Of a stretch of DNA of 64,000 nt, positions 6,419 through 64,000 are shown piece by piece; within the stretch, counting starts at the first letter, position 1, and each line of letters begins with the position of its first letter. Made by a program: the position numbers and the translations under genes. The stretch is taken from NCBI GenBank assembly GCA_023269825.1, contig JAGDWI010000001.1, positions 56,492 through 120,491 of the forward strand, written 5' to 3'. Source of the stretch: Desulfurococcaceae archaeon. GTDB taxonomy: Archaea; Thermoproteota; Thermoprotei_A; Sulfolobales; Desulfurococcaceae. Below the pieces are notes generated by a model. That model saw nothing but the letters and a program-made list of their open reading frames with translations. It was not told where the DNA came from and did no database searches.

Positions 6419-6553
6419 GGTTCCCCATATTTGTTATTTGTTCGAGATTAATCTTACCGCTCTCATCGAAATTTCAGTGACTCTATTTGTGGGATAAAAG
6501 TAGGACAATAGTAAAATTTAAAAGCTCCACCCTACATACGTTGGGCTGGGCTC

Positions 6554-7942
6554 TTGAAAGGAGAGCAATATTTAGAACAAATACCAAAAGAAAAAAGACT
6601 ATATGGTACAGTGACTTTTTCCTGGATGATGTTCAGCATGAATGTATGTATACCACTATTTTTTCTAGGAACCATTGGCTACAACCTCGGACTGAACCCT
6701 TTAGAGGTAGCTGTAGGAGCACTCCTAGGTAACCTAGCGACTGTTATAGTAATGATCTTAAACGGTGTTCCAGGAGTAAAGTATGGTATACCATACCCAG
6801 TGCAATTGAAGCCGAGCTGGGGTACAAAGGGTTCACATATACCCGTCATATTGAGAGGAATTGTTGGTGCTGGCTGGTACGGAATAGAGGCTTATAACGC
6901 TAGTCTAGCAATCACTATGATAGCGTTATTCATGGTTGGTTACGGGGGTGGAAAACCACCTGTAATAGTGCAGAGCTCATTCAAATATATAGTAATAGCT
7001 CTAGCTGTATACGTTATACTCGCTACAGTAACTGTTGCAAAAGGATTAAGAACAATCGCTAAAGTCATAAACATCTCGGGGCCACTGCTACTATTATACT
7101 TTATTTGGCTAACTATCTATCTAGGTAACCAAGGAGCAGTAAACACTGTTGTTCGAAGCGGAGCTGGGTTCTTCTCCAAGGAATTTGCCCTGTATCTTGC
7201 TGTTCAAACAAACTTTTGGGCCACCGTGTGCCTAAACATAAGTGATCTCGCGAGAGGATTATATGCGGATAAGCGTGGATTAAGAGCATTAGTTATTGGG
7301 CCAGTACTAGGAATCATAGTAACTTCAGTGGTTGCATCAATACAGGGATACTACATGACTTTATATACAGGTTACAGTACTCCTCAAGAAATAATATTGT
7401 ACGCGGCTCCAGGGTTCATAGCAGTTATTTTAGGGCAAATATTCGCTTTCCTTGCACCATTTAGTACAGATGTTACTGCGAATATCCCAGCATTAATGAA
7501 TATAATAGAATATAGTTTGAAAATGAACAAGTATAAGCTGATAGCTGTAGCATTAATAGGATTCATTCTTGCACCATGGTGGGCTGTGGAGAAAGGCCCT
7601 GATGTTGTCAACTATGTGACAGCTTTTACAGCGAGTTACGGGATTTTACTTGGCCCAATAGCTGGCATCATGCTCGCAGATTACTACATAGTTAAGCGGA
7701 GAGACTACGATGTTGAAAAATTGTACAACGATGATCCAAACGGCTATTGGTATAGGAACGGCTTCAACTACGCTGCTATAATAGCTTACATTGTATCAGT
7801 GGTTGGCATATACTTATTCAGTTACGCGATAGGCGACGTAACGAGATTAGGGCCACTAGTTTTTCCAACAAACTTAAGCTGGTATTTTGGAGTAGTACTA
7901 GCAACGTTACTATACCCCTTATTCTCGAAATTGTTTAAATAA
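6554..7942 (+). CDS. NCS1-family nucleobase:cation symporter (cytosine/purine/uracil/thiamine/allantoin permease family)
   Basis: 462 aa with about 12 predicted TM helices. The overall pattern (WMMFSMNVCIPLF, GIEAYNASLAI) resembles NCS1 permeases. Confidence 0.7.
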   Translation: MKGEQYLEQIPKEKRLYGTVTFSWMMFSMNVCIPLFFLGTIGYNLGLNPLEVAVGALLGNLATVIVMILNGVPGVKYGIPYPVQLKPSWGTKGSHIPVILRGIVGAGWYGIEAYNASLAITMIALFMVGYGGGKPPVIVQSSFKYIVIALAVYVILATVTVAKGLRTIAKVINISGPLLLLYFIWLTIYLGNQGAVNTVVRSGAGFFSKEFALYLAVQTNFWATVCLNISDLARGLYADKRGLRALVIGPVLGIIVTSVVASIQGYYMTLYTGYSTPQEIILYAAPGFIAVILGQIFAFLAPFSTDVTANIPALMNIIEYSLKMNKYKLIAVALIGFILAPWWAVEKGPDVVNYVTAFTASYGILLGPIAGIMLADYYIVKRRDYDVEKLYNDDPNGYWYRNGFNYAAIIAYIVSVVGIYLFSYAIGDVTRLGPLVFPTNLSWYFGVVLATLLYPLFSKLFK

Positions 7943-14686: not shown

Positions 14687-15433
14687 ATGGTTCAAAAAAT
14701 GAAAATCAATAACGGGCACAATAGTACAGTGCTCTACATAGGCGTAGACGAAGCAGGGAGAGGGCCTCTAATAGGAGACATGGTTGTAGCAGGTGTATTA
14801 TCGGCTGGTAGTAAATTAAAAGAGCTGGAAAAAGAGGGATTAGTTGAAAGCAAACAATTAAATGCCGAGGCCCGAGCCTCATTCTATAGAAAAGCAATTA
14901 AATACGGTATCGTAGTGATAGCAGTTTATGTATCTCCCTGGAGAATCGATAACGAGAATTTAAATAAGTTGGAGGAAGAGCAAATAAAGTGGATTTTGAA
15001 AGTGTTCTCCAAGATAGTTCCTGGTGTAAGAGTAGATGAAATCAAAGTATTCATCGACGAAGTCAAAGGTAGTGCTCGAAAAATAGAGTCAGCTGCTAGA
15101 GAATTATTTAGTAAATACAAATTAGTGTTCAAAATGGAGCCAGAAGCTGATGATAAATATTCACCTGTAGCTTTGGCGAGTATCTTCGCGAAAGTGATGA
15201 GGGATCGTAATCTAGATGTTTTAAGGAAACTATACGGTGATTTTGGTTCAGGCTACTCAGCGGATCCAATTACTGTTAACTGGGTTAAAATGAACTATAG
15301 ACCAAGCATTAAACCCCCCTTATTTATTAGAAGGAGTTGGAGGAACTTGAAAGACATAGCGCCAGAATGGTACGTGGAGAAAAAAGTAGAGATCAAGAAG
15401 CATCGTAGTCTGCTTGATTTCACTAAACGGTGA
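14687..15433 (+). CDS. rnhB: Ribonuclease HII
   Basis: GVDEAGRGPLIGDMVVAG and ADDKYSPVALASIFAKV are typical RNase HII motifs. Confidence 0.9.
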   Translation: MVQKMKINNGHNSTVLYIGVDEAGRGPLIGDMVVAGVLSAGSKLKELEKEGLVESKQLNAEARASFYRKAIKYGIVVIAVYVSPWRIDNENLNKLEEEQIKWILKVFSKIVPGVRVDEIKVFIDEVKGSARKIESAARELFSKYKLVFKMEPEADDKYSPVALASIFAKVMRDRNLDVLRKLYGDFGSGYSADPITVNWVKMNYRPSIKPPLFIRRSWRNLKDIAPEWYVEKKVEIKKHRSLLDFTKR

Positions 15434-55752: not shown

Positions 55753-55791
55753 TGTTCTATATTCGCAGATACATCCTTAATTATTCAGAGA

Positions 55792-55956
55792 GGTTCTAAT
55801 GGTATAATTTTCTAATTGCTTTCTGATATCGTTGAAAAATATTCACATCTGTCACATGTACTTCACTGTGTATGTAGGAATGTCTATGCTGCTGCACTTT
55901 ATATGGTGGTTCTAATATCGGCTATACTGCCAACAATGTAGACGCGGTTGAAAAAT
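55792..55956. repeat. Two short motifs (GGTTCTAAT and GTTGAAAAAT), each duplicated at exactly the same 116-bp offset
   Basis: GGTTCTAAT lies at 55792-55800 and 55908-55916. GTTGAAAAAT lies at 55831-55840 and 55947-55956. The intervening 30 nt are unrelated. Confidence 0.6.
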
Positions 55957-56312
55957 CTATGGCTACTCTAGCTATGTGCTCTGAGTTGTGTTCCACGAGG
56001 CAGTCGATAGTCCTCTTAATTCTATCCTCATCAGCGTTTACTAAGTGGAGTCCACTTATCACCGCCTTTAATTTCTTGATACGGGTTAATTCTATTGAGT
56101 GCTTTATATTAATGTTACATATGCGATTGATCTTGATTTTAAGGAGCGTAAAAAGAGTTATTGGACTTTGCTTATGTGTAGTTTTCCTTTAAGAGAAGAA
56201 TCAAAGTTCACGTAAACATAAAACCAATATTTTCCATCAAGCTCGATGACGATGTTTACTCTGTATTTTCTGGAATCTTGGCGATTAGTAAAAATATAGT
56301 TGAAAATGGAAA
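55922..56312 (-). pseudogene. Decayed ORF remnants on the minus strand (two overlapping frames, no start codon)
   Basis: My own translation gives ...YRVNIVIELDGKYWFYVYVNFDSSLKGKLHISKVQ* (stop at 56158-56160). In another frame it gives ...IELTRIKKLKAVISGLHLVNADEDRIKRTIDCLVEHNSEHIARVAIDFSTASTLLAV* (stop at 55922-55924). Confidence 0.3.
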
Positions 56313-59300
56313 ATGCGGGTCTTAGAAGATCAGGGAAGGATATATTTAGAGCTCTTAATAGTTAAAAACATGAGATTAAAACCCTTTAGGTGGTATTTTC
56401 ACTTGTTTGCTACTATTACCGGAAAAGTCAAGGTAACCCCGATAAGAACGTGTTCACTACTTTTAATCTCTATGATTCTCTTCCCTTTTTTACTTGAAAA
56501 TTTAGGTATTTTTCCCGTCACAGTGGACTCAGCCAGTAAAAGTAGTGAAACTTTACCTTACCACTCCTATGTGGAGATTAGAGGCGATTTCATAGTTCTT
56601 GGAAACAACTATATTGAACTCACTATTACACTAGGCAATAATACTGGAGGAGGAATATACTCTATAAAGGATAAGCTTAGAGGAGTAGATTTTATAAGAA
56701 ATAAACAATATGTTAATATAGGATTATTTGCTCTAGAGTACTGGTATGATCCAATTAAATGGTACGCAGCTCTACTAGGTAGAAATGCAAACTTAGAGTA
56801 CACTTATTCCATTAATGAAACTGGCGCAACACTCAACTTATATTGGAGTAATTTAAGCTCAACACATGAAGAGAGAAAATTCACTGTAAATGTTCACGTT
56901 GAAATATATATCCCCTCTAACTCTAGCTTTACCTATTGGCAGATCGAATTTGAGAATAAAGATAATGTAACAATCGAGAACATACATTTCCCCACAATCG
57001 TCGGAATGGATCAGATATCCAACGAGGAAGACGGTGATTACCTAGTACTTCCGAGTTGGTCTGGAATACTGTTTAAAAACCCAATTAGGAACATGAAGAA
57101 GGGTGGAAGTATAGGTGCTGATTATCCATCGGGATTTCTCAATATGCAATTCATTGCCTACTATTCATCTAATCCTCGAAGTGGTTTATACTTAGCTAAC
57201 TACGATGAAACCGGGGCCTACCTAAAGAGATTTTCATTTAGTAGTTCTCCTATTGATAATAATATTTGGCTAGTTAATACTCACATAATCTCTCTAAGTG
57301 GGAATCAAAGTAGAGTTAGTCTCCCCTACAGAGTCGTATTAGGAATTTTTAGTGGAGACTGGTATGATGTAGCACAAATCTACAAAGAGTGGGCTAGTAA
57401 GCAGTGGTGGGCTAGGGGTAATCTAACTATAGGTAAAGATACCCCAATGTGGCTTAAGAAGAGCGGAGTAGTAATAGACTTCTTCACTAGGTACTGGGCG
57501 AGGAATTCAAGTGTATGGAATGGTCCCTACTCAAATATGCCTCCAACCGCAGAGGCCTTTAGAGCGTTCTACAATGCAACTCCAATTCTATGGTGGAGAG
57601 GGTGGGAGAAAAACGGCTTCGGTATGACGCCACCGGATTATTTACCACCATCTGAGGGGTGGAGCTCGTTTGACTCAGCAGTGCAGGGGGCTCACTATAA
57701 TGGAGGGAGAGTAATGGTCCCAGTACCCTCTATACTCACATATAGCTTTAATGCTTCAGGTTGGCAAGAAGCTGTAAACTATGCACCGAGAGATAGGTGG
57801 GGCAATTTGTACACTCAGACTTGGTATATTCATAATAATTCAGGCATAGTTGTCGAACAAGTGGGCTTTATAATGGCCCCTACAGATTTCTGGCTTAATA
57901 AAATCCTCAATATTTCACTAGAGCTAGTAAATCACGGCATAGACGTAGTTCAACTAGATGGGGGTCCTCCACCACCTTTCATAAATTACCATGGAGACCT
58001 CCCTAGAGGTGGGGGTGATTGGTGGGCCAGAGAGTACATGAGGATATATCATACTGTTCGAGAAGAAGTCAAGAGAGCTAACTCGGAGGCCACTATAGGG
58101 TCTGAGTGGCTAGTAGAGAGCTTTATACCCTACATTGACTTAGGCTGTGACGAGGCTATAGGTGGACTTGATCCTACTGGTATAGCATCTGGCGTCTTCT
58201 ATAATAGCACACTAAACTCCTATATACCCCTATGGCAGGCGGTTTATCACGAGCACATGTTACTGTACTCCTTTATCTCAATCATAGATGGCCGAGATAG
58301 TCTATACTACTTGAGAAACCTTGCTCTTTCACTCGTCTGGGGGGATTTACCCATGATCGACGCTGATCCCCAGGGCACAGGTAGTCCTTACAATCTACGC
58401 CTTTACGATCAAAAAATCCTTGAATACTCGAGGAGAATAGTAGAGGCGAGGAGTAAATACGCATATCACTACCTTGTTGAGGGAGTTATGCTGAGACCAC
58501 CGCTTGTCACGCCAAATCCTCAAATTCTAATACCTGGTGCATCGAGAATTCCGTATTCTGGGGTGGATGTAAATCCATTTTACTCGGACTCTGTATTTGC
58601 TAGTGCTTGGCTCGCTCCAGATAAAAGTGTAGGGGTAGTGGTTACAAGTATAGCACCATATAAATTGAACATCACAATACCACTAGCTGATTACAATGTG
58701 TTTCAAGAGGAAGACCTAGATGTATATATTGTTGTTAACGGCGAAGTCTACTCGAGTTTTCAGAGTAGGGGAATTCCAAGAGAAGTAGAGTTAAGCTTAG
58801 CACCCTATGATGTAGCTCTAATAGTTATTTCTCCTCATAGCTCACTACGTGCTAGGGCCGTAGAGGAGCTTCAAGAAGTCGAATATAAGTTAAGAACACT
58901 AAATTTGCCTAGAGATAGCACCGTATATAACTGGCTGAATTTAGCTATATTTAAATTTAAAAACAACGACTTTGAAGAATCACTAAATATCTTAGTAAAA
59001 TTAATGGAGAACATGACAACACTTTCCCTTATTGTAGAGCAAATTCACGCGTTAAACACTACGATAATAGAGAGTTACGCTAATGCATCTACTCCAGCAT
59101 TAAGAGGGCTGTTAGACATTGCAAGCAACCTCCTTGAGGAGGCTCTACTAGAAGCATTAAATCTCAATTTCACAGCCTCCGAGATATTGATAAACGCCTC
59201 AAAAGAGAAACTAAGCGGCTTTTACGCTCTTCAATACCTAACGCTTGAGGCACAGAATACTCTGAATGTGCTACTACAAACACTCTACACGCTCAATGAA

Positions 59301-59672
59301 ACCATAACTTCTACTGAAGGCAGAGAGACTCTAGAGCATGCGGGAAAACTGCTTGGAGAAGCCGAAGAGTTCATTAATAATGGAGAAGTAGAAAGAGCTA
59401 TGCAACTACTCTCTGAGGCGAAATTACTAATGAAGGAGGCTGTAGAGAAATCAACAGTAAAAACGGTTACAGTTACTACGGTGGAAACAGTTACAGTTAC
59501 CATAGAGAGAACAATTGTGTCTACGGAAACTTCTCCGACAACAATAACTTCTCTAATAACAACAATAACAATACAAGGAGGGGTTGTAGAGTGGAGTAGA
59601 ACAATTGCTCTCTCACTAATACTACTCATCGTAGGTATTATAGCGGGGAGACTCTTAGGAAAGAAGAAATAA
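56313..59672 (+). CDS. Very large surface protein: N-terminal signal anchor, glycoside-hydrolase-like ectodomain, helical stalk, Thr/Val-rich linker and C-terminal TM anchor
   Basis: 1119 aa, with a likely start at M20 (56370, MRLKPFRW...). There are many N-x-S/T sequons. The helical region (approximately residues 850-1050) is followed by TVKTVTVTTVETVTVTIERTIVSTETSPTTITSLITTITIQ, a TM helix and GRLLGKKK. The catalytic family is not identifiable by eye. Confidence 0.7.
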   Translation: MRVLEDQGRIYLELLIVKNMRLKPFRWYFHLFATITGKVKVTPIRTCSLLLISMILFPFLLENLGIFPVTVDSASKSSETLPYHSYVEIRGDFIVLGNNYIELTITLGNNTGGGIYSIKDKLRGVDFIRNKQYVNIGLFALEYWYDPIKWYAALLGRNANLEYTYSINETGATLNLYWSNLSSTHEERKFTVNVHVEIYIPSNSSFTYWQIEFENKDNVTIENIHFPTIVGMDQISNEEDGDYLVLPSWSGILFKNPIRNMKKGGSIGADYPSGFLNMQFIAYYSSNPRSGLYLANYDETGAYLKRFSFSSSPIDNNIWLVNTHIISLSGNQSRVSLPYRVVLGIFSGDWYDVAQIYKEWASKQWWARGNLTIGKDTPMWLKKSGVVIDFFTRYWARNSSVWNGPYSNMPPTAEAFRAFYNATPILWWRGWEKNGFGMTPPDYLPPSEGWSSFDSAVQGAHYNGGRVMVPVPSILTYSFNASGWQEAVNYAPRDRWGNLYTQTWYIHNNSGIVVEQVGFIMAPTDFWLNKILNISLELVNHGIDVVQLDGGPPPPFINYHGDLPRGGGDWWAREYMRIYHTVREEVKRANSEATIGSEWLVESFIPYIDLGCDEAIGGLDPTGIASGVFYNSTLNSYIPLWQAVYHEHMLLYSFISIIDGRDSLYYLRNLALSLVWGDLPMIDADPQGTGSPYNLRLYDQKILEYSRRIVEARSKYAYHYLVEGVMLRPPLVTPNPQILIPGASRIPYSGVDVNPFYSDSVFASAWLAPDKSVGVVVTSIAPYKLNITIPLADYNVFQEEDLDVYIVVNGEVYSSFQSRGIPREVELSLAPYDVALIVISPHSSLRARAVEELQEVEYKLRTLNLPRDSTVYNWLNLAIFKFKNNDFEESLNILVKLMENMTTLSLIVEQIHALNTTIIESYANASTPALRGLLDIASNLLEEALLEALNLNFTASEILINASKEKLSGFYALQYLTLEAQNTLNVLLQTLYTLNETITSTEGRETLEHAGKLLGEAEEFINNGEVERAMQLLSEAKLLMKEAVEKSTVKTVTVTTVETVTVTIERTIVSTETSPTTITSLITTITIQGGVVEWSRTIALSLILLIVGIIAGRLLGKKK

Positions 59673-59875
59673 AAGATCCCACACCTGGCTTCATTTTCAT
59701 GTTAAGCGATTTCCTCGCGGACACGTTATCATATGCCTCCTAGAACAAAGTACTGAAAGAGAGAAACCTGAGGGTTTATGAGAGTTTTCATTTTCTTAAA
59801 AGGAGAAATCAACAAGTAGTGAAAAAGAGAAGACTGATCATTAACCCATTGAGGCACGTGGGTATTTAAACCCCG

Positions 59876-60145
59876 CTACTCCAGCTTCCTCAGTATTTCC
59901 TCTGCTGTCTTCTCCTGTGTGTAGGTTAATATGTAGTCTAGGCGTGAGTGCTTGGTTATCTTGGCTGTTATCGAGGGGCTTACTCCCTGGCGGAGCAGGT
60001 AGGTTATGAGTGCATATCTTAGCGAGTGCGTGTTGAAGCCGTAGGTGTACCTAGAGTAGACTTTAAGCCTAGACCCCCAATCTAGCGTCTTCGATGCCAA
60101 AGAGCCTCCCGTAGGCACCCTTCGAGAATGTATAAGAGTGCACAC
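59876..60145 (-). pseudogene. C-terminal fragment of a tyrosine recombinase/integrase (box II region only)
   Basis: NTHSLRYALITYLLRQG (HxxR) and ITKHSRLDYILTYTQ (H...Y) are present. The N-terminal about 100+ aa, including the box I Arg, are missing, and the upstream frames contain stops. Confidence 0.7.
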
Positions 60146-60234
60146 TATTTGTTTATTGTGGCGTGATTTTTAAGTTAATTGAGTAATGTAGATCTTCTGG
60201 GTTGAAAACGAGGCGCTAAAATGGGTTTAGGGGT

Positions 60235-60522
60235 ATGGTTTCGAGAAAATTACTTGCTGGGCTCTTTGTTAGAGAGTATTGGCTTCAACTAATGATCCTT
60301 CCTCTCCTAGTTGCTCTCTCATACTACGCTATCCTCTACGGGAAACTGTTTGAGTTCCTGGTACTTGTTGTTATGTGGATTCAGCTAGAAATAGCATATA
60401 GGCAGTGGTGGCTTGAAGCTGAGGTTAAACGTCCCCCTTTAATAGTAAAGCTTGAACTTGTGGGAGACGATAATATAGCTTTGCTTGTTAGAACACTAGT
60501 GCTCTGCCAATCTACGAAATAA
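60235..60522 (+). CDS. Hypothetical small membrane protein (possibly the 5' part of a frame-shifted larger gene)
   Basis: 95-aa ORF with two TM helices. The frame of the next ORF is open from 60492, so the two overlap by 31 nt. Confidence 0.4.
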   Translation: MVSRKLLAGLFVREYWLQLMILPLLVALSYYAILYGKLFEFLVLVVMWIQLEIAYRQWWLEAEVKRPPLIVKLELVGDDNIALLVRTLVLCQSTK

Positions 60523-60569
60523 ACACCCTTGTTCTACCATATGAGGTTTATAGGAGATACTCCACTCTA

Positions 60570-60974
60570 TTGGTTTATAACGTCCGTGTGATTAAATACT
60601 TATACTCGATCGGGGAGTTAACTCCCTGTGTAATGCCCGCACAAATCGATTTACTCTCCGATGATGAGAAAATAGTGAGTTTTACCTTTAAAGAGCTGGA
60701 AGAAGGTTGCCATGATATCGGGGATATAGGGGATGCTGCAGCCCTTATAATATGCCACAATGATCCAACGACTTACCCAGAATCGTGCGGGGCCATTGTA
60801 CGTTGGAGCCCTCGTTCTAAGACCGCGTATATTAGTGGCTTGCTCAGAGGAATTCCAGGAGTATTAACACGAGTCCCCAATATGATCAGAGATGCTCATA
60901 TTTATCACATGTACTATAAGTTATTGAAGACACACTCTCGGCTTACACAACACACTAAAAAGCTTAAACACTAG
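60570..60974 (+). CDS. Hypothetical protein (possibly the 3' part of a frame-shifted larger gene)
   Basis: 134-aa ORF with a TTG start. It has no recognisable motif. Its frame is open upstream to 60492. Confidence 0.4.
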   Translation: MVYNVRVIKYLYSIGELTPCVMPAQIDLLSDDEKIVSFTFKELEEGCHDIGDIGDAAALIICHNDPTTYPESCGAIVRWSPRSKTAYISGLLRGIPGVLTRVPNMIRDAHIYHMYYKLLKTHSRLTQHTKKLKH

Positions 60975-61027
60975 TAACGTCAACAAAGATTTACATATTC
61001 TTGCCTAAGATCCTAAACTTGCGGCTC

Positions 61028-61327
61028 CTATGAAACTACGTCTTCCAAGACAATGCCTTTTTCTTCAAGCTTTTCTCGCACGTAGCCGTAGAAGAGCGTT
61101 AAGCTCTCTACAACGTCATACCACAGATCCACCTCTATGCCTGCTCTACGCTTTAACTTAACGACAAGCTTTGCAAGGGCTTCAAGTAGTAAGCCACCGT
61201 GTGCCTCTAAGAAAAGCACTCTCAAGGGGCAAGCTGTCGGTGTCGAGGTCCAAATGATGTTGTTATCTAACTTGAAGGCCATAGATCTTATCTTGAGCTT
61301 TATGGGGGTCTTTAAGCGTGTGTTCAC
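61028..61327 (-). CDS. Hypothetical small protein
   Basis: 99-aa ORF (84 aa from MAFKL at 61282). It overlaps the 3' end of the upstream ORF. Confidence 0.35.
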   Translation of the reverse strand: MNTRLKTPIKLKIRSMAFKLDNNIIWTSTPTACPLRVLFLEAHGGLLLEALAKLVVKLKRRAGIEVDLWYDVVESLTLFYGYVREKLEEKGIVLEDVVS

Positions 61328-61733
61328 ATATTATGTATCCGTTACCACGTTCGTATACATCTTCACATTTTTGCACATATATATGCCACTCCTTGTACTT
61401 TTCATACAGTTCAGACGCCTGTAGCGGTGCCAGGATCTCCCTGAGCTCTTTCTTCCAGTTTTTACAGTCTGCATTAGCGGGTGTAATGACCCTGTAAATA
61501 AACGTGAACATGCTTGAGTACACTCCCCTGAACAACATGTACGGGAAGGTCACTATGAGAATTCCCATAATAAACAATATTAGTGGTAGTACGATGAGGT
61601 ACCACAGAGCGGTTAATAGAGCTGAAACTGGTGATACATGTGGTGGGCTTGACGGCAGGGTGGTACTCGCGACTTTGTTGATAAGTAAACTAAGTGAGGT
61701 GCCTATTGATACCGACAGCAGAGTCGAGAACAC
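61263..61733 (-). CDS. Hypothetical membrane protein (2-3 TM helices plus a soluble C-terminal domain)
   Basis: 156-aa ORF. Hydrophobic N-terminal half (ALLTALWYLIVLPLILFIMGILIVTF). Confidence 0.4.
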   Translation of the reverse strand: MFSTLLSVSIGTSLSLLINKVASTTLPSSPPHVSPVSALLTALWYLIVLPLILFIMGILIVTFPYMLFRGVYSSMFTFIYRVITPANADCKNWKKELREILAPLQASELYEKYKEWHIYVQKCEDVYERGNGYIICEHTLKDPHKAQDKIYGLQVR

Positions 61734-62007
61734 TATGATGTGCTGATTTTCAATCCTATTAATGACCGCCTAACAGCACTGTTAATAACTCCCATGTCTT
61801 TTGGTTGCGGAGCGTTAATTTCCCGCATCCCCGTTCTCACCGCTGATCATTTATACTCGCTTACTCAGTATTATCATTTGTTACTAATGCGGTTTAGAAC
61901 GCCTTTACTTTGAAGTAGAGGCACAGGATCTCGTTTCCTAAATATAGAAAAGAGGAAATCAAGCAGTCTGCTTTAAAAGCATCATTTCCTATTTTCAAGG
62001 GGATACC

Positions 62008-62574
62008 ATGAAAAAGGGAAGCCTGAAGCTAGGGGATGTACCACCTTACCCCGCTCTCTTAGAAGCCGTTAAGAAGGCTTGGAGCGATGTCTCCCGGGCT
62101 AGATATGGTGCTCGAGACTTAGCCCTCGCGGCCGCGATGGTCTTTACCGGTTGCAGGATCGGAGAAGTTGTACAACTTAGAAGGCAGGACGTGGATATAA
62201 AGAGAAAGACAGTAGTAATCAGGCAACTCAAGAAGAGAGGAGAGTTCCAGCGAGTGGTGCCAGTGCCGAGCAACCTCTACTGGGAGATAATGACTTACTA
62301 CCTGGAGCGGACAGTCGAGGACAGAGTATTCAATGTATCAGTGAGGCAAGCTAGGAACATAGTTTACTCCTTCACGGAGAAGTACTTGAAGAAGAAGATT
62401 AGACCGCACGCCATTAGACACTCCTACGCTGTAGCCGTGTTAAAGGCCACTAAGAACCTCGAAGCCGTTAGAAGGCTACTAGGCCACAGAGACTACACAA
62501 CAATCAAGATATACCTAGACCTAACACAAGAAGACCTAGAACAAGAGCTTGATAGGCTTTTTAAGGAAATTTAG
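62008..62574 (+). CDS. Short (188 aa) tyrosine recombinase/integrase consisting of the catalytic domain only
   Basis: Box I FTGCRIGEVVQL (Arg), HAIRHSYAVA (HxxR) and LLGHRDYTTIKIYLD (H...Y). There is no N-terminal core-binding domain. Confidence 0.85.
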   Translation: MKKGSLKLGDVPPYPALLEAVKKAWSDVSRARYGARDLALAAAMVFTGCRIGEVVQLRRQDVDIKRKTVVIRQLKKRGEFQRVVPVPSNLYWEIMTYYLERTVEDRVFNVSVRQARNIVYSFTEKYLKKKIRPHAIRHSYAVAVLKATKNLEAVRRLLGHRDYTTIKIYLDLTQEDLEQELDRLFKEI

Positions 62575-62710
62575 TGTAAGTAAACGTAGAATCTAGGTAT
62601 ACCTTGAATTCCATCGTTTTGCTTAGTTTCAAGGTATACTAGTCTAGATAACCCCGGTCTCAAGCCCCCAACTATCTACGCAATGTACAACGTAATATAC
62701 AAAACAAGTT

Positions 62711-63007
62711 CTACGAGGTTGTTTTCTCGATAAGAGAGTATAGTTCCGGGTCTTTCTCTCTAAGTTTCTCCAGGGTTGTTGGTTTAAGCCCCTTGGATTT
62801 AACCCTTTGTAGGTCTCCACGTATAAAGGAGTCATATATTTTCTCGCAGTTATTGTGGTTTCTACAGGAGTTCTCCAGGAACTCTTGTACTACTTGTAGG
62901 GCTTCCTCCTCGCTGAGCCTCTTCACATTCATTAGGTACGCTGAGAGCACGTAGAGTATGAAGCGCTTCCTGCCATCGAGGAGCCTCTTCTCGATAATCT
63001 TCTCCAC
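62711..63007 (-). CDS. Hypothetical small helical protein (weak resemblance to PriL-CTD/PriX-type helical bundles)
   Basis: 98-aa ORF. GRKRFILYVLSAYLMNVKRLSEEEALQVVQEF recalls the R..L.L..FL...G.S.EE. helix pair of primase large-subunit C-terminal domains. This is a recollection, not verified. Confidence 0.45.
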   Translation of the reverse strand: MEKIIEKRLLDGRKRFILYVLSAYLMNVKRLSEEEALQVVQEFLENSCRNHNNCEKIYDSFIRGDLQRVKSKGLKPTTLEKLREKDPELYSLIEKTTS

Positions 63008-63076
63008 TCACTCATATCTCATCGGTCTCCTAACGGCGGCTTGGTCCTCTAAGGCTACTGGTGTAGTGGTTTCAGC

Positions 63077-63203
63077 CTTTCAATTCTTTATATTGAATTC
63101 ATAGGCTTTATTATCATCGACTCCATTACCCAGCCGATTCTTTCAATTCTTTATATTGAATTCTATGCTTGATCCTTTATGTGGGTTTCTTAATATTGGA
63201 TTC
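63077..63203 (-). CRISPR. Cas-less mini-CRISPR array: two perfect 24-bp repeats, one 39-bp spacer, one 16-bp pseudo-spacer and one degenerate repeat
   Basis: CTTTCAATTCTTTATATTGAATTC occurs at 63077-63100 and 63140-63163 and is identical. Its reverse complement GAATTCAATATAAAGAATTGAAAG ends with ATTGAAAG, the conserved archaeal crRNA 5'-handle. Repeat length and the 39-bp spacer fit crenarchaeal arrays. A third copy at 63180-63203 matches 16/24. Confidence 0.6.
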
Positions 63204-63246
63204 GTGTTTCTATAAGTGTGGAGGGGTTTATAAGCTTTATTCATGG

Positions 63247-63291
63247 TGATCATGGGGGTCTGATCAAAAGAGATCATGAGGGGTGATCATG
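63247..63291. repeat. Cluster of GATCATG(R)GGGT / TGATCA motifs
   Basis: tGATCATGGGGGTcTGATCAaaagaGATCATGAGGGGTGATCATG, read directly. GATCATG lies at 63248, 63272 and 63285. The palindromic TGATCA cores lie within a 620-bp ORF-free block. Confidence 0.6.
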
Positions 63292-63630
63292 TTGATTCCC
63301 CGGTTTCTAGGGATTTTTCATGTTGGATCAATTAATGTTTAGTCTTGTATATTGATGTGTATTTAAACCCGTACACTTCTCTCCACTTGATCCTTTCCAC
63401 ACAAGGCTCGATCTTCCCCGTTTTTCAGGGAATTTGTATAATGTAGCGTTTCTCTAGAGTATAAACTAAAAGAATTCTATAAACGCGTCCACATATCATT
63501 GAAGCAATGGACAGGAAGGGGTAAAGAAAAGTGAATAGCTACTTCATCTACACTCTTTGATAGCTTTTTCTGTTCTTCTTCCTTTTTCACCTATATCCTA
63601 GGTTCTTTACTCACAGTCTCACAGAGACTA

Positions 63631-63846
63631 CTATTTATGTTGTGAAACGCCTAAGTATTGCTTTAGCTCGTCTATGTCCATGCTCTGCGAGTATGGCTCA
63701 AAGATCCTCCACAGCTCTTCTTCCTTCCCCTGCCTCCTAGCCTCCCAGAGCAGGACATCAGTCACGCAGCTTATACGGCTGATAACGGGGTGATCACGCC
63801 CAATAATACACGCAACATTATTGCCTAGTCTCCTACACATGAACAA
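63631..63846 (-). CDS. Hypothetical small protein
   Basis: 71-aa ORF directly upstream of the mini-CRISPR block and in the same orientation. No motif recognised. Confidence 0.3.
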   Translation of the reverse strand: MFMCRRLGNNVACIIGRDHPVISRISCVTDVLLWEARRQGKEEELWRIFEPYSQSMDIDELKQYLGVSQHK

Positions 63847-64000
63847 TCTCTATTTAAAGCTTATATATTAGACATGAAGATTAGCTAACAATGTTTGTTT
63901 TTGGCTGAGTTTTATGGATAAATCGTTTAATTGCCCGATTAAGCTTCCCGTGATGCTCGCCTTAATAATAACTGCTAATGTCGCCTTAGAGGCTAATGTG

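Follow-up and report, generated by a model that had tools for sequence, protein, structure and literature searches.

We analysed a window of 64,000 nt from the genome of a Desulfurococcaceae archaeon, positions 56492-120491 of contig C2 in the assembly denoted here G000 (1.50 Mb in three contigs, 40.6% GC, 96.6% complete, 0.13% estimated contamination), with attention to window positions 59876-64000, where a preliminary description made from the letters alone had seen an integration hot-spot or integrated element with two integrase genes. From left to right, the stretch from 59.8 to 63.5 kb holds the 3' relic of a short tyrosine integrase gene, two frameshifted pseudogenes, an intact gene for a 188-aa tyrosine recombinase, the 3' stub of a mobile-element primase-polymerase (prim-pol) gene, and a two-repeat CRISPR array with its leader (Table 1). 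Coordinates past 64000 are window-equivalent positions in a sequence extended 20 kb rightwards (L001). Protein families were searched in Pfam, PHROGs, NCBIfam and PADLOC and RNAs with ARAGORN and Rfam, and the comparison set comprised nine genus relatives with a readable region downstream of rad50, 17 genus genomes for the PriX domain and 30 relatives for the recombinase.

Table 1. Features of the insert and of the flagged region, in window coordinates (ORF, open reading frame).
Feature	Coordinates	Strand	Basis or remark
G000-specific insert	55753..~68566; left 8.2 kb (55753..64000) inside the window	.	synteny of relatives
Segment shared with G010	56270..60070	+	holds the gene of the 1119-aa DUF6259 surface protein (56313-59672) as well as the integrase relic
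ATV/SMV1-type short tyrosine integrase, 3' relic	59876..60145	-	89-aa ORF; true homology 59876-60073, last ~65 codons
Pseudogene of 257-aa protein	60202..60974	+	one frameshift near 60492-60495
Pseudogene of 267-aa membrane protein	61028..~61830	-	at least two frameshifts, at ~61300 and ~61760
Conserved upstream region of the 188-aa gene	61931..62007	+	TTTAAAA box and TTTCCT/AGGAAA(T)/ATTTCCT inverted repeats
188-aa tyrosine recombinase, catalytic domain only	62008..62574	+	intact; PF00589 E 1.8e-20, positions 18-170 of 172
Mobile-element primase-polymerase, 3' stub of ~120 codons	62711..63070	-	PriX-like helix bundle; AEP catalytic domain missing
CRISPR mini-array	63077..63163	-	two identical 24-bp repeats, one 39-bp spacer (63101-63139)
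CRISPR leader	63164..63458	-	homology to relatives' leaders
71-aa ORF	63631..63846	-	no family match
704-aa membrane protein gene, start	63914..64000, ends 66028	+	no family match

Comparison with the relatives shows that this region belongs to a larger insert. The mre11-nurA-herA-rad50 cluster of G000, together with 24-bp CTTTCAATTC-type CRISPR repeats in relatives and tables of kinship, marks the assembly as crenarchaeal. In G000, 12.8 kb separate the convergent rad50 and cdd genes, the insert beginning right after rad50. In all nine relatives cdd and/or IleRS directly follow rad50, across a gap of ~40-350 bp: rad50 and cdd are convergent neighbours ~40 bp apart in G008 and G010, and in the seven others cdd and/or IleRS lie within a few hundred bp of rad50. 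Judged by presence and absence at this conserved site, the insert is a genomic island, and the mobile-element origin and the indel against relatives proposed in the preliminary description are both upheld. Its left limit is not, since the change was placed right after the 1119-aa gene and the insert includes that gene. The idea of a hot-spot is unsupported, since the site is free of inserted DNA in every one of the nine relatives. The insert contains the 1119-aa DUF6259 gene, the flagged region, the 71-aa ORF, the 704-aa gene, a 111-aa ORF and a gene for a 544-aa transporter.

The 89-aa ORF at the left edge had been read as an integrase C-terminal fragment, and the family searches agree. It matches PF00589 at profile positions 125-170 of 172 (E 1e-3) and phrog_9208 'integrase' at positions 175-239 of 241 (E 2e-21); because only these last positions are matched, and not the whole ~165-240-aa protein of an ATV/SMV1-type integrase, we take the window copy to be a truncated member of phrog_9208. 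The sole other copy in G000 is the intact gene of a 168-aa paralogue at C1:7889-8395, to whose last 65 residues the relic is 95% protein-identical. This paralogue shares 42-43% identity, over 98% of the length, with the integrases of Acidianus two-tailed virus (ATV), SMV1, ATSV and Sulfolobales virus YNP1. Thus the likeness to the integrases of large tailed spindle viruses is full-length for the C1 paralogue and limited to the C-terminal 65 positions for the relic; in contrast to those viral genes, the window copy keeps its last ~65 homologous codons only and stands in a plasmid-like context with a prim-pol gene and no structural genes. A metagenome contig from another hot-spring archaeon (L040) bears the same truncated form (80 aa, 95% identical), so that the truncation is older than the divergence of the two copies. 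Truncated copies of varied lengths are common in metagenomes.

The small ORFs that follow, suspected in the preliminary description of being frame-disrupted, turned out to be just that. The gene of a 257-aa protein is split in the window into ORFs 60235-60522 and 60570-60974, and a tblastn search with the L040 protein needed two frames, one for residues 1-98 and a second for residues 98-257, both at 86-89% identity. The gene of a 267-aa membrane protein is split into 61263-61733 and 61028-61327, both of which are spanned by intact homologues (P0121-P0123, 266-270 aa, 82-90% identical); its N-terminal 'MGVINSAVRR...' is also out of frame. On L040 (7.5 kb) window positions 59871-62547 are contiguous at 90.2% identity, with the 257-aa and 267-aa genes intact. 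The short-integrase 3' relic, these two genes and the 188-aa recombinase gene form a 2.7-kb module, which on L040 is flanked by a partial tRNA-Ser 3' half (a probable attachment, att, remnant; see below) and host genes.

The 188-aa recombinase gene, correctly noted beforehand as an intact short integrase, is the only one of the region's mobile-element genes to have escaped damage. The protein belongs to the tyrosine recombinase superfamily (PF00589) and aligns to residues 116-272 of Pyrococcus abyssi XerA (4A8E), with the R (TGCRIGE), HAIRH, LGH and IKIY motifs present. It resembles archaeal XerA and bacterial XerC/D (4A8E, 5HXY, 1A0P) in its catalytic domain and catalytic residues, but it is without the ~110-residue N-terminal core-binding domain, falls below the equivalog cut-off for archaeal XerA (NF040815; 102 bits against 220, profile positions 110-262), and is sporadic and linked to mobile elements. 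A separate full-length XerA-like gene of 333 aa lies at C2:601019-602020. FimB/FimE-type invertases are of near size and give weak NCBIfam matches (E 5e-8). The recombinase has more than 200 metagenome homologues, mostly of 186-209 aa with some shorter fragments, and recurs within prim-pol/PriX elements; close homologues are absent from the 30 relatives, and a query of genome contigs with the protein returned a single irrelevant bacterial match. Such a sporadic distribution is as expected of a mobile-element gene. Its last eight codons are unlike those of the homologues because homology breaks at 62549. The recombinase alone could still be active; in the intact elements it would most likely be an accessory enzyme of resolvase or invertase type and not a tRNA integrase.

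Directly upstream of this gene, two inverted repeats (TTTCCT-N13-AGGAAA and AGGAAAT-N24-ATTTCCT) surround a TTTAAAA box. The region is conserved in four gene contexts (the window, L004, L040 and L007), the homology between contexts begins exactly there, and the distant copy on L007 has TTTCCCAAAA...TTTTGGGAA at the same place. It is a predicted promoter and possibly a putative binding site as well; the palindromes are not recognisable beyond close homologues, whose sequences are too few to argue from covariation. Three copies of a 16-nt motif around AGGTATACCT occur nearby (62504-62519, 62592-62607 and 62629-62648). The first copy lies within the recombinase codons for IKIYLD, which include the catalytic Tyr; the second, a near-perfect palindrome TCTAGGTATACCTTGA, lies 18 bp past the stop codon, with the partial third copy 37 bp further on, and the homology breakpoint at 62549 falls between the first two. 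The motif could be a candidate recombinase binding site or a product of chance. A weaker idea is that recombinase and upstream palindromes might together make a self-contained cassette that shuffles modules between elements.

The 98-aa helical ORF noted in the preliminary description (62711-63007) exists, but as the end of a prim-pol gene. It has the PriX helix-bundle domain (PF18689, E 9e-33; NCBIfam NF033412 primase_PriX, 125.8 bits against a cut-off of 50), and together with the codons upstream of it forms a stub that is 86-88% DNA-identical to the 3' ends of two kinds of prim-pol genes, one of 369 aa on C1 and others of 371 aa on L004-L006. Upstream of the GTG start of the ORF, homology goes on for ~20 codons, crosses an in-frame TGA (63008-63010) whose counterpart in the homologues is TGG (...KYEWVEKII... 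in the homologues, ...RYE*VEKII... in the window), and ends at ~63066-63070. The PriX domain is found in four of the 17 genus genomes, each time inside frames of 245-373 aa, and not as a stand-alone, vertically conserved gene; a domain so sporadic and always so embedded argues that the 98-aa ORF is not a host primase subunit. A metagenome contig carrying P0017 has an 82%-identical recombinase near a 110-aa PriX-only ORF and a 104-aa ORF on the opposite strand, an order like that of the window; decay, or a split primase, may be recurrent.

The parental protein on C1 has an AEP domain followed by the C-terminal PriX-like domain. Helix-bundle domains fused to the primases of mobile elements, integrative ones included, have been described (Kazlauskas et al. 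2018, PMC5862659). In its AEP and PriX-like domains and its place in an integrative element the parental gene resembles prim-pols of the pRN1 ORF904 type with PriCT/PriX-like domains, whereas the window keeps the helix-bundle stub only. We found no detectable homologue of the prim-pol protein in the PLSDB plasmid collection.

A fuller element of this family lies at C1:7800-16510 (L002), next to a complete tRNA-Ser(TGA) gene. In order from that tRNA gene come an SSV-type (PF16795) integrase gene of 427 aa, small genes, the gene of a 661-aa protein (a putative helicase without family match), the 369-aa prim-pol/PriX gene, a gene of 212 aa and that of the 168-aa integrase; the element is interrupted by IS200/605-type tnpB copies (C1:1-1011 and 6458-7753), one contig end falling inside a tnpB copy. 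The 12-kb elements L004-L006 have the same backbone plus the 188-aa recombinase gene, and window positions 61931-62549 and 62736-63066 are 90% and 86% identical to them. The recombinase gene and the primase 3' end are 187 bp apart in the window against 3.8 kb in L004, and everything beyond the primase C-terminus is missing from the window. Partial tRNA-Ser(TGA) 3' halves, starting from the anticodon loop, occur beside a RuBisCO large-subunit gene both at C3:401419-401479 (L041 4420-4480) and on L040 (1678-1738); they have the look of att remnants left by integration at tRNA-Ser. The C1 copy, with its PF16795 integrase by tRNA-Ser(TGA) and these probable att remnants on C3 and L040, is thus similar to tRNA-targeting elements of SSV and pNOB8 type; the window copy differs from them in having no PF16795 integrase, tRNA gene or att remnant.

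Beyond the stub lies what had been called an ORF-free repeat block. Such a block exists, although it was mis-described, being a CRISPR mini-array with its leader. The repeat reads GAATTCAATATAAAGAATTGAAAG on the transcribed strand, and relatives' CRISPR repeats are of the 24-bp CTTTCAATTC type; arrays of 5 to more than 20 repeats of this family occur in many genus relatives. Read on the minus strand, the repeat has ATTGAAAG at its end, the usual crenarchaeal CRISPR RNA (crRNA) 5' handle, and the leader, being upstream on that strand, fits the direction of the handle. The leader shares 90% identity over 319 bp with its counterpart at a 10-repeat G010 array (G010:C7), and 88% with a G014 leader. 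With a known repeat family, a unique spacer and a leader this is a CRISPR array, the only one of any kind in G000. The spacer had no match with up to eight mismatches in the genome or the fetched loci, and no exact match in scans of viral contigs or metagenomes. No Cas1, RAMP or DevR gene was found with three Pfam models in the 96.6%-complete assembly, so that the locus does not make up a CRISPR-Cas system, and the mini-array would be non-functional here because no such gene was found. A processed crRNA with the AUUGAAAG 5' handle, if found, would mean an active array.

Virus-borne mini-arrays with a leader and one or two spacers are documented in SPV1/SPV2 (Medvedeva et al. 2019, PMC6858448). 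The window array shares with them a leader, 1-2 spacers, host-like repeats and leader, and the want of adjacent cas genes; unlike theirs, its surroundings are not those of any virus or plasmid recognisable as intact, and no target and no Cas1, RAMP or DevR gene was found. With no intact carrier, target or such Cas gene, the array looks like a remnant and not a weapon. We also considered recombination between spacer and protospacer as the cause of the junction between primase and repeat, and rejected it because the primase homology fades 6-10 bp before the repeat. Elsewhere in the genus, a solo CRISPR repeat with ~100 bp of leader lies at G010:C5:53242-53341 (L029 ~15243-15342), which shows that vestigial leader-repeat units like that of the window recur in the genus. 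Arrays also sit at non-conserved sites: the G010 array lies between GDT1 and an AsnRS-like gene, and its counterpart in G000 (C2:580937-581258) is empty.

Window positions 56270-60070 are 97.6% DNA-identical over 3.8 kb to a G010 contig (G010:C25), which ends at the equivalent of window 60070, while the core proteins of G010 are 45-78% identical to those of G000 (Rad50 45%, IleRS 73%, transporter 62%). So great a DNA identity set against such protein identities points to recent horizontal transfer. The 1119-aa gene is found in G000 and G010 only, and not in the other 29 relatives searched, which suggests that a large envelope glycosidase-like gene was recently transferred horizontally between the two. 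In both G010 and L040 this DNA has one and the same host gene as its neighbour, homologous to C3:405.5-406.3 kb. The shared neighbour places the DNA at the tRNA-Ser-linked site in G010 and L040, and makes the window copy a secondary, rearranged location.

ARAGORN found no tRNA gene in the window and its 20-kb rightward extension, and Rfam at permissive thresholds found no match in 58001-67000. The candidate insert borders share no words of at least 12 bp, only a single TATA-like 11-mer, and the tRNA-Ser att core was not found across the whole insert with up to six mismatches allowed. A 15-bp repeat at 59859 and 63356 was rejected as an att site because its right copy lies in a TATA-like box that is conserved in the CRISPR leader. 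The shifted base composition asserted in the preliminary description proved weak: GC of 59876-64000 is 0.431, against 0.406 (sd 0.024) for 4-kb windows of the genome, at the 89.5th percentile, and the tetranucleotide deviation lies at the 89th-93rd percentile. GC is mildly raised between ~57 kb and 63 kb, with its onset inside the 1119-aa gene and not after it, and window 48-54 kb is equally GC-rich.

We regard the stretch from 59.8 to 63.5 kb as a decayed mosaic of mobile-DNA remnants plus a CRISPR vestige inside a G000-specific insert, and give this reading a probability of about 0.8. The locus is the mosaic that decay has left of an element of a known kind, a common genomic scar, and not an intact integrated element, for which flanking att repeats and a functional cognate integrase were looked for and not found. 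It has the homologies, truncations, frameshifts and in-frame stop described above and is absent from the relatives; the order of events is our inference. Foreign DNA, part of it common and almost unchanged to the distant congener G010, would have come in through a single event or a few, illegitimate or recombinational, and deletions and frameshifts would then have eroded it. Several points weigh against this reading. No att repeats, tRNA gene or clear scars show how the insert arrived, and the compositional signal is weak. The junctions at 62549-62736 and 63066-63077 are seen in the G000 assembly alone. The relic's 95% protein identity, set against 90% DNA identity between the two copies, could be a sign of retained function and not of pure decay. 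Three models made up the cas search, of which the DevR control was silent in Sulfolobus acidocaldarius, so that a cas module, if divergent or unassembled, may have escaped it.

An unlikely but arguable alternative is that the mini-array and its leader were carried by a mobile element, as in SPV1/SPV2 and one bicaudavirus, for inter-element conflict with borrowed host Cas. Only 6-10 bp part the array from the primase stub, its two repeats are identical, the site syntenic to the G010 array is empty in G000, and virus-borne mini-arrays are on record (PMC6858448); moreover, leaders that are 88-90% identical where core proteins are 45-80% identical suggest that leader-array units move horizontally. 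However, the related elements examined (C1, L004-L007 and L040) have no repeat array or leader apart from one loose match (up to six mismatches) in L004, the best leader matches adjoin ordinary chromosomal arrays flanked by housekeeping genes, the spacer is without a target among fetched elements, viral contigs and metagenome contigs, and Cas1, RAMP and DevR were not found in the host. If this alternative were true, the integrative prim-pol plasmids of this hot-spring lineage would carry mini-CRISPR arrays between distant species and use resident Cas against competitors, and the window would preserve one such unit fused to a primase gene. A small working array also enters a very improbable view of the region as functional host DNA, with a stand-alone PriX subunit and a Xer-like recombinase. 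The PriX score of the 98-aa ORF and the fact that the best NCBIfam match of the recombinase is archaeal XerA speak for it. Set against them are the absence of the whole region at this site in nine of nine relatives, the sporadic PriX domain, fused elsewhere to AEP domains and here continued upstream through a TGA, the separate XerA-like gene in the genome and the sub-threshold XerA score of the recombinase, and, for the array, the Cas1, RAMP and DevR genes, which were not found.

Equally far-fetched is the suggestion, made in the preliminary description, that an SSV-type element was integrated here, with the 89-aa ORF as the int(C) half of a split integrase and the element continuing past 64000. 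An integrase C-terminal fragment does lie at the left edge, and G000 has a PF16795 integrase in its C1 element. Neither integrase ORF of the window matches PF16795, though, the fragment being of the phrog_9208/ATV/SMV1 type, and its orientation is the reverse of an SSV-type split: its stop codon (the 3' end) faces the element border, and the truncated 5' end looks inwards. L040 has the identical truncation, and no int(N), att repeat or tRNA gene, such as an int(C) at a border with att overlapping a tRNA would entail, was found. The genes to the right are those of the genome-specific membrane protein, the transporter and the housekeeping proteins cdd and IleRS, not those of a continuing element. 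Finally, there is little chance that a chimeric assembly of this metagenome-derived genome produced the junctions or the mosaic as a whole. The G010 contig breaks exactly at the truncation point of the integrase, and mobile-element sequences are repeated elsewhere in the genome; yet 56270-60070 and 59871-62547 are each contiguous in independent assemblies and the two segments overlap, and the assembly has only three contigs with its low estimated contamination.

The ORF opening at 63914 does run off the window, as had been noted, and encodes a 704-aa protein; within the genus its gene is found in G000 only. The sole relative found of the 71-aa ORF is an 80% DNA match in G002:C7. Neither these two proteins nor the 257-aa, 267-aa, 333/345-aa and 111-aa proteins had a match in Pfam, PHROG, NCBIfam or PADLOC. 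Orthologues of the 544-aa transporter sit elsewhere in the relatives. Two stop-riddled paralogous fragments of this transporter occur in G000 at C2:24548-26018 and C2:481051-481576, with 38-41% protein identity and several in-frame stops.

Automated annotation would probably call the 98-aa ORF 'DNA primase subunit PriX', the 188-aa protein 'XerD' and the two-repeat array a 'CRISPR locus', and each of these labels would mislead: we find a dead primase-polymerase stub, an orphan mobile-element recombinase and a vestige without any Cas1, RAMP or DevR gene found. The locus points to a so far undescribed integrative family of ~12 kb with a prim-pol/PriX protein, a 661-aa protein, an SSV-type integrase and short recombinases. 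It also points to genes having passed recently between distant species within a single crenarchaeal genus of hot springs, as seen in the surface-protein gene (97.6%) and the CRISPR leader (90%). These leads leave the understanding of such systems unchanged and are useful for surveys of the mobilome.

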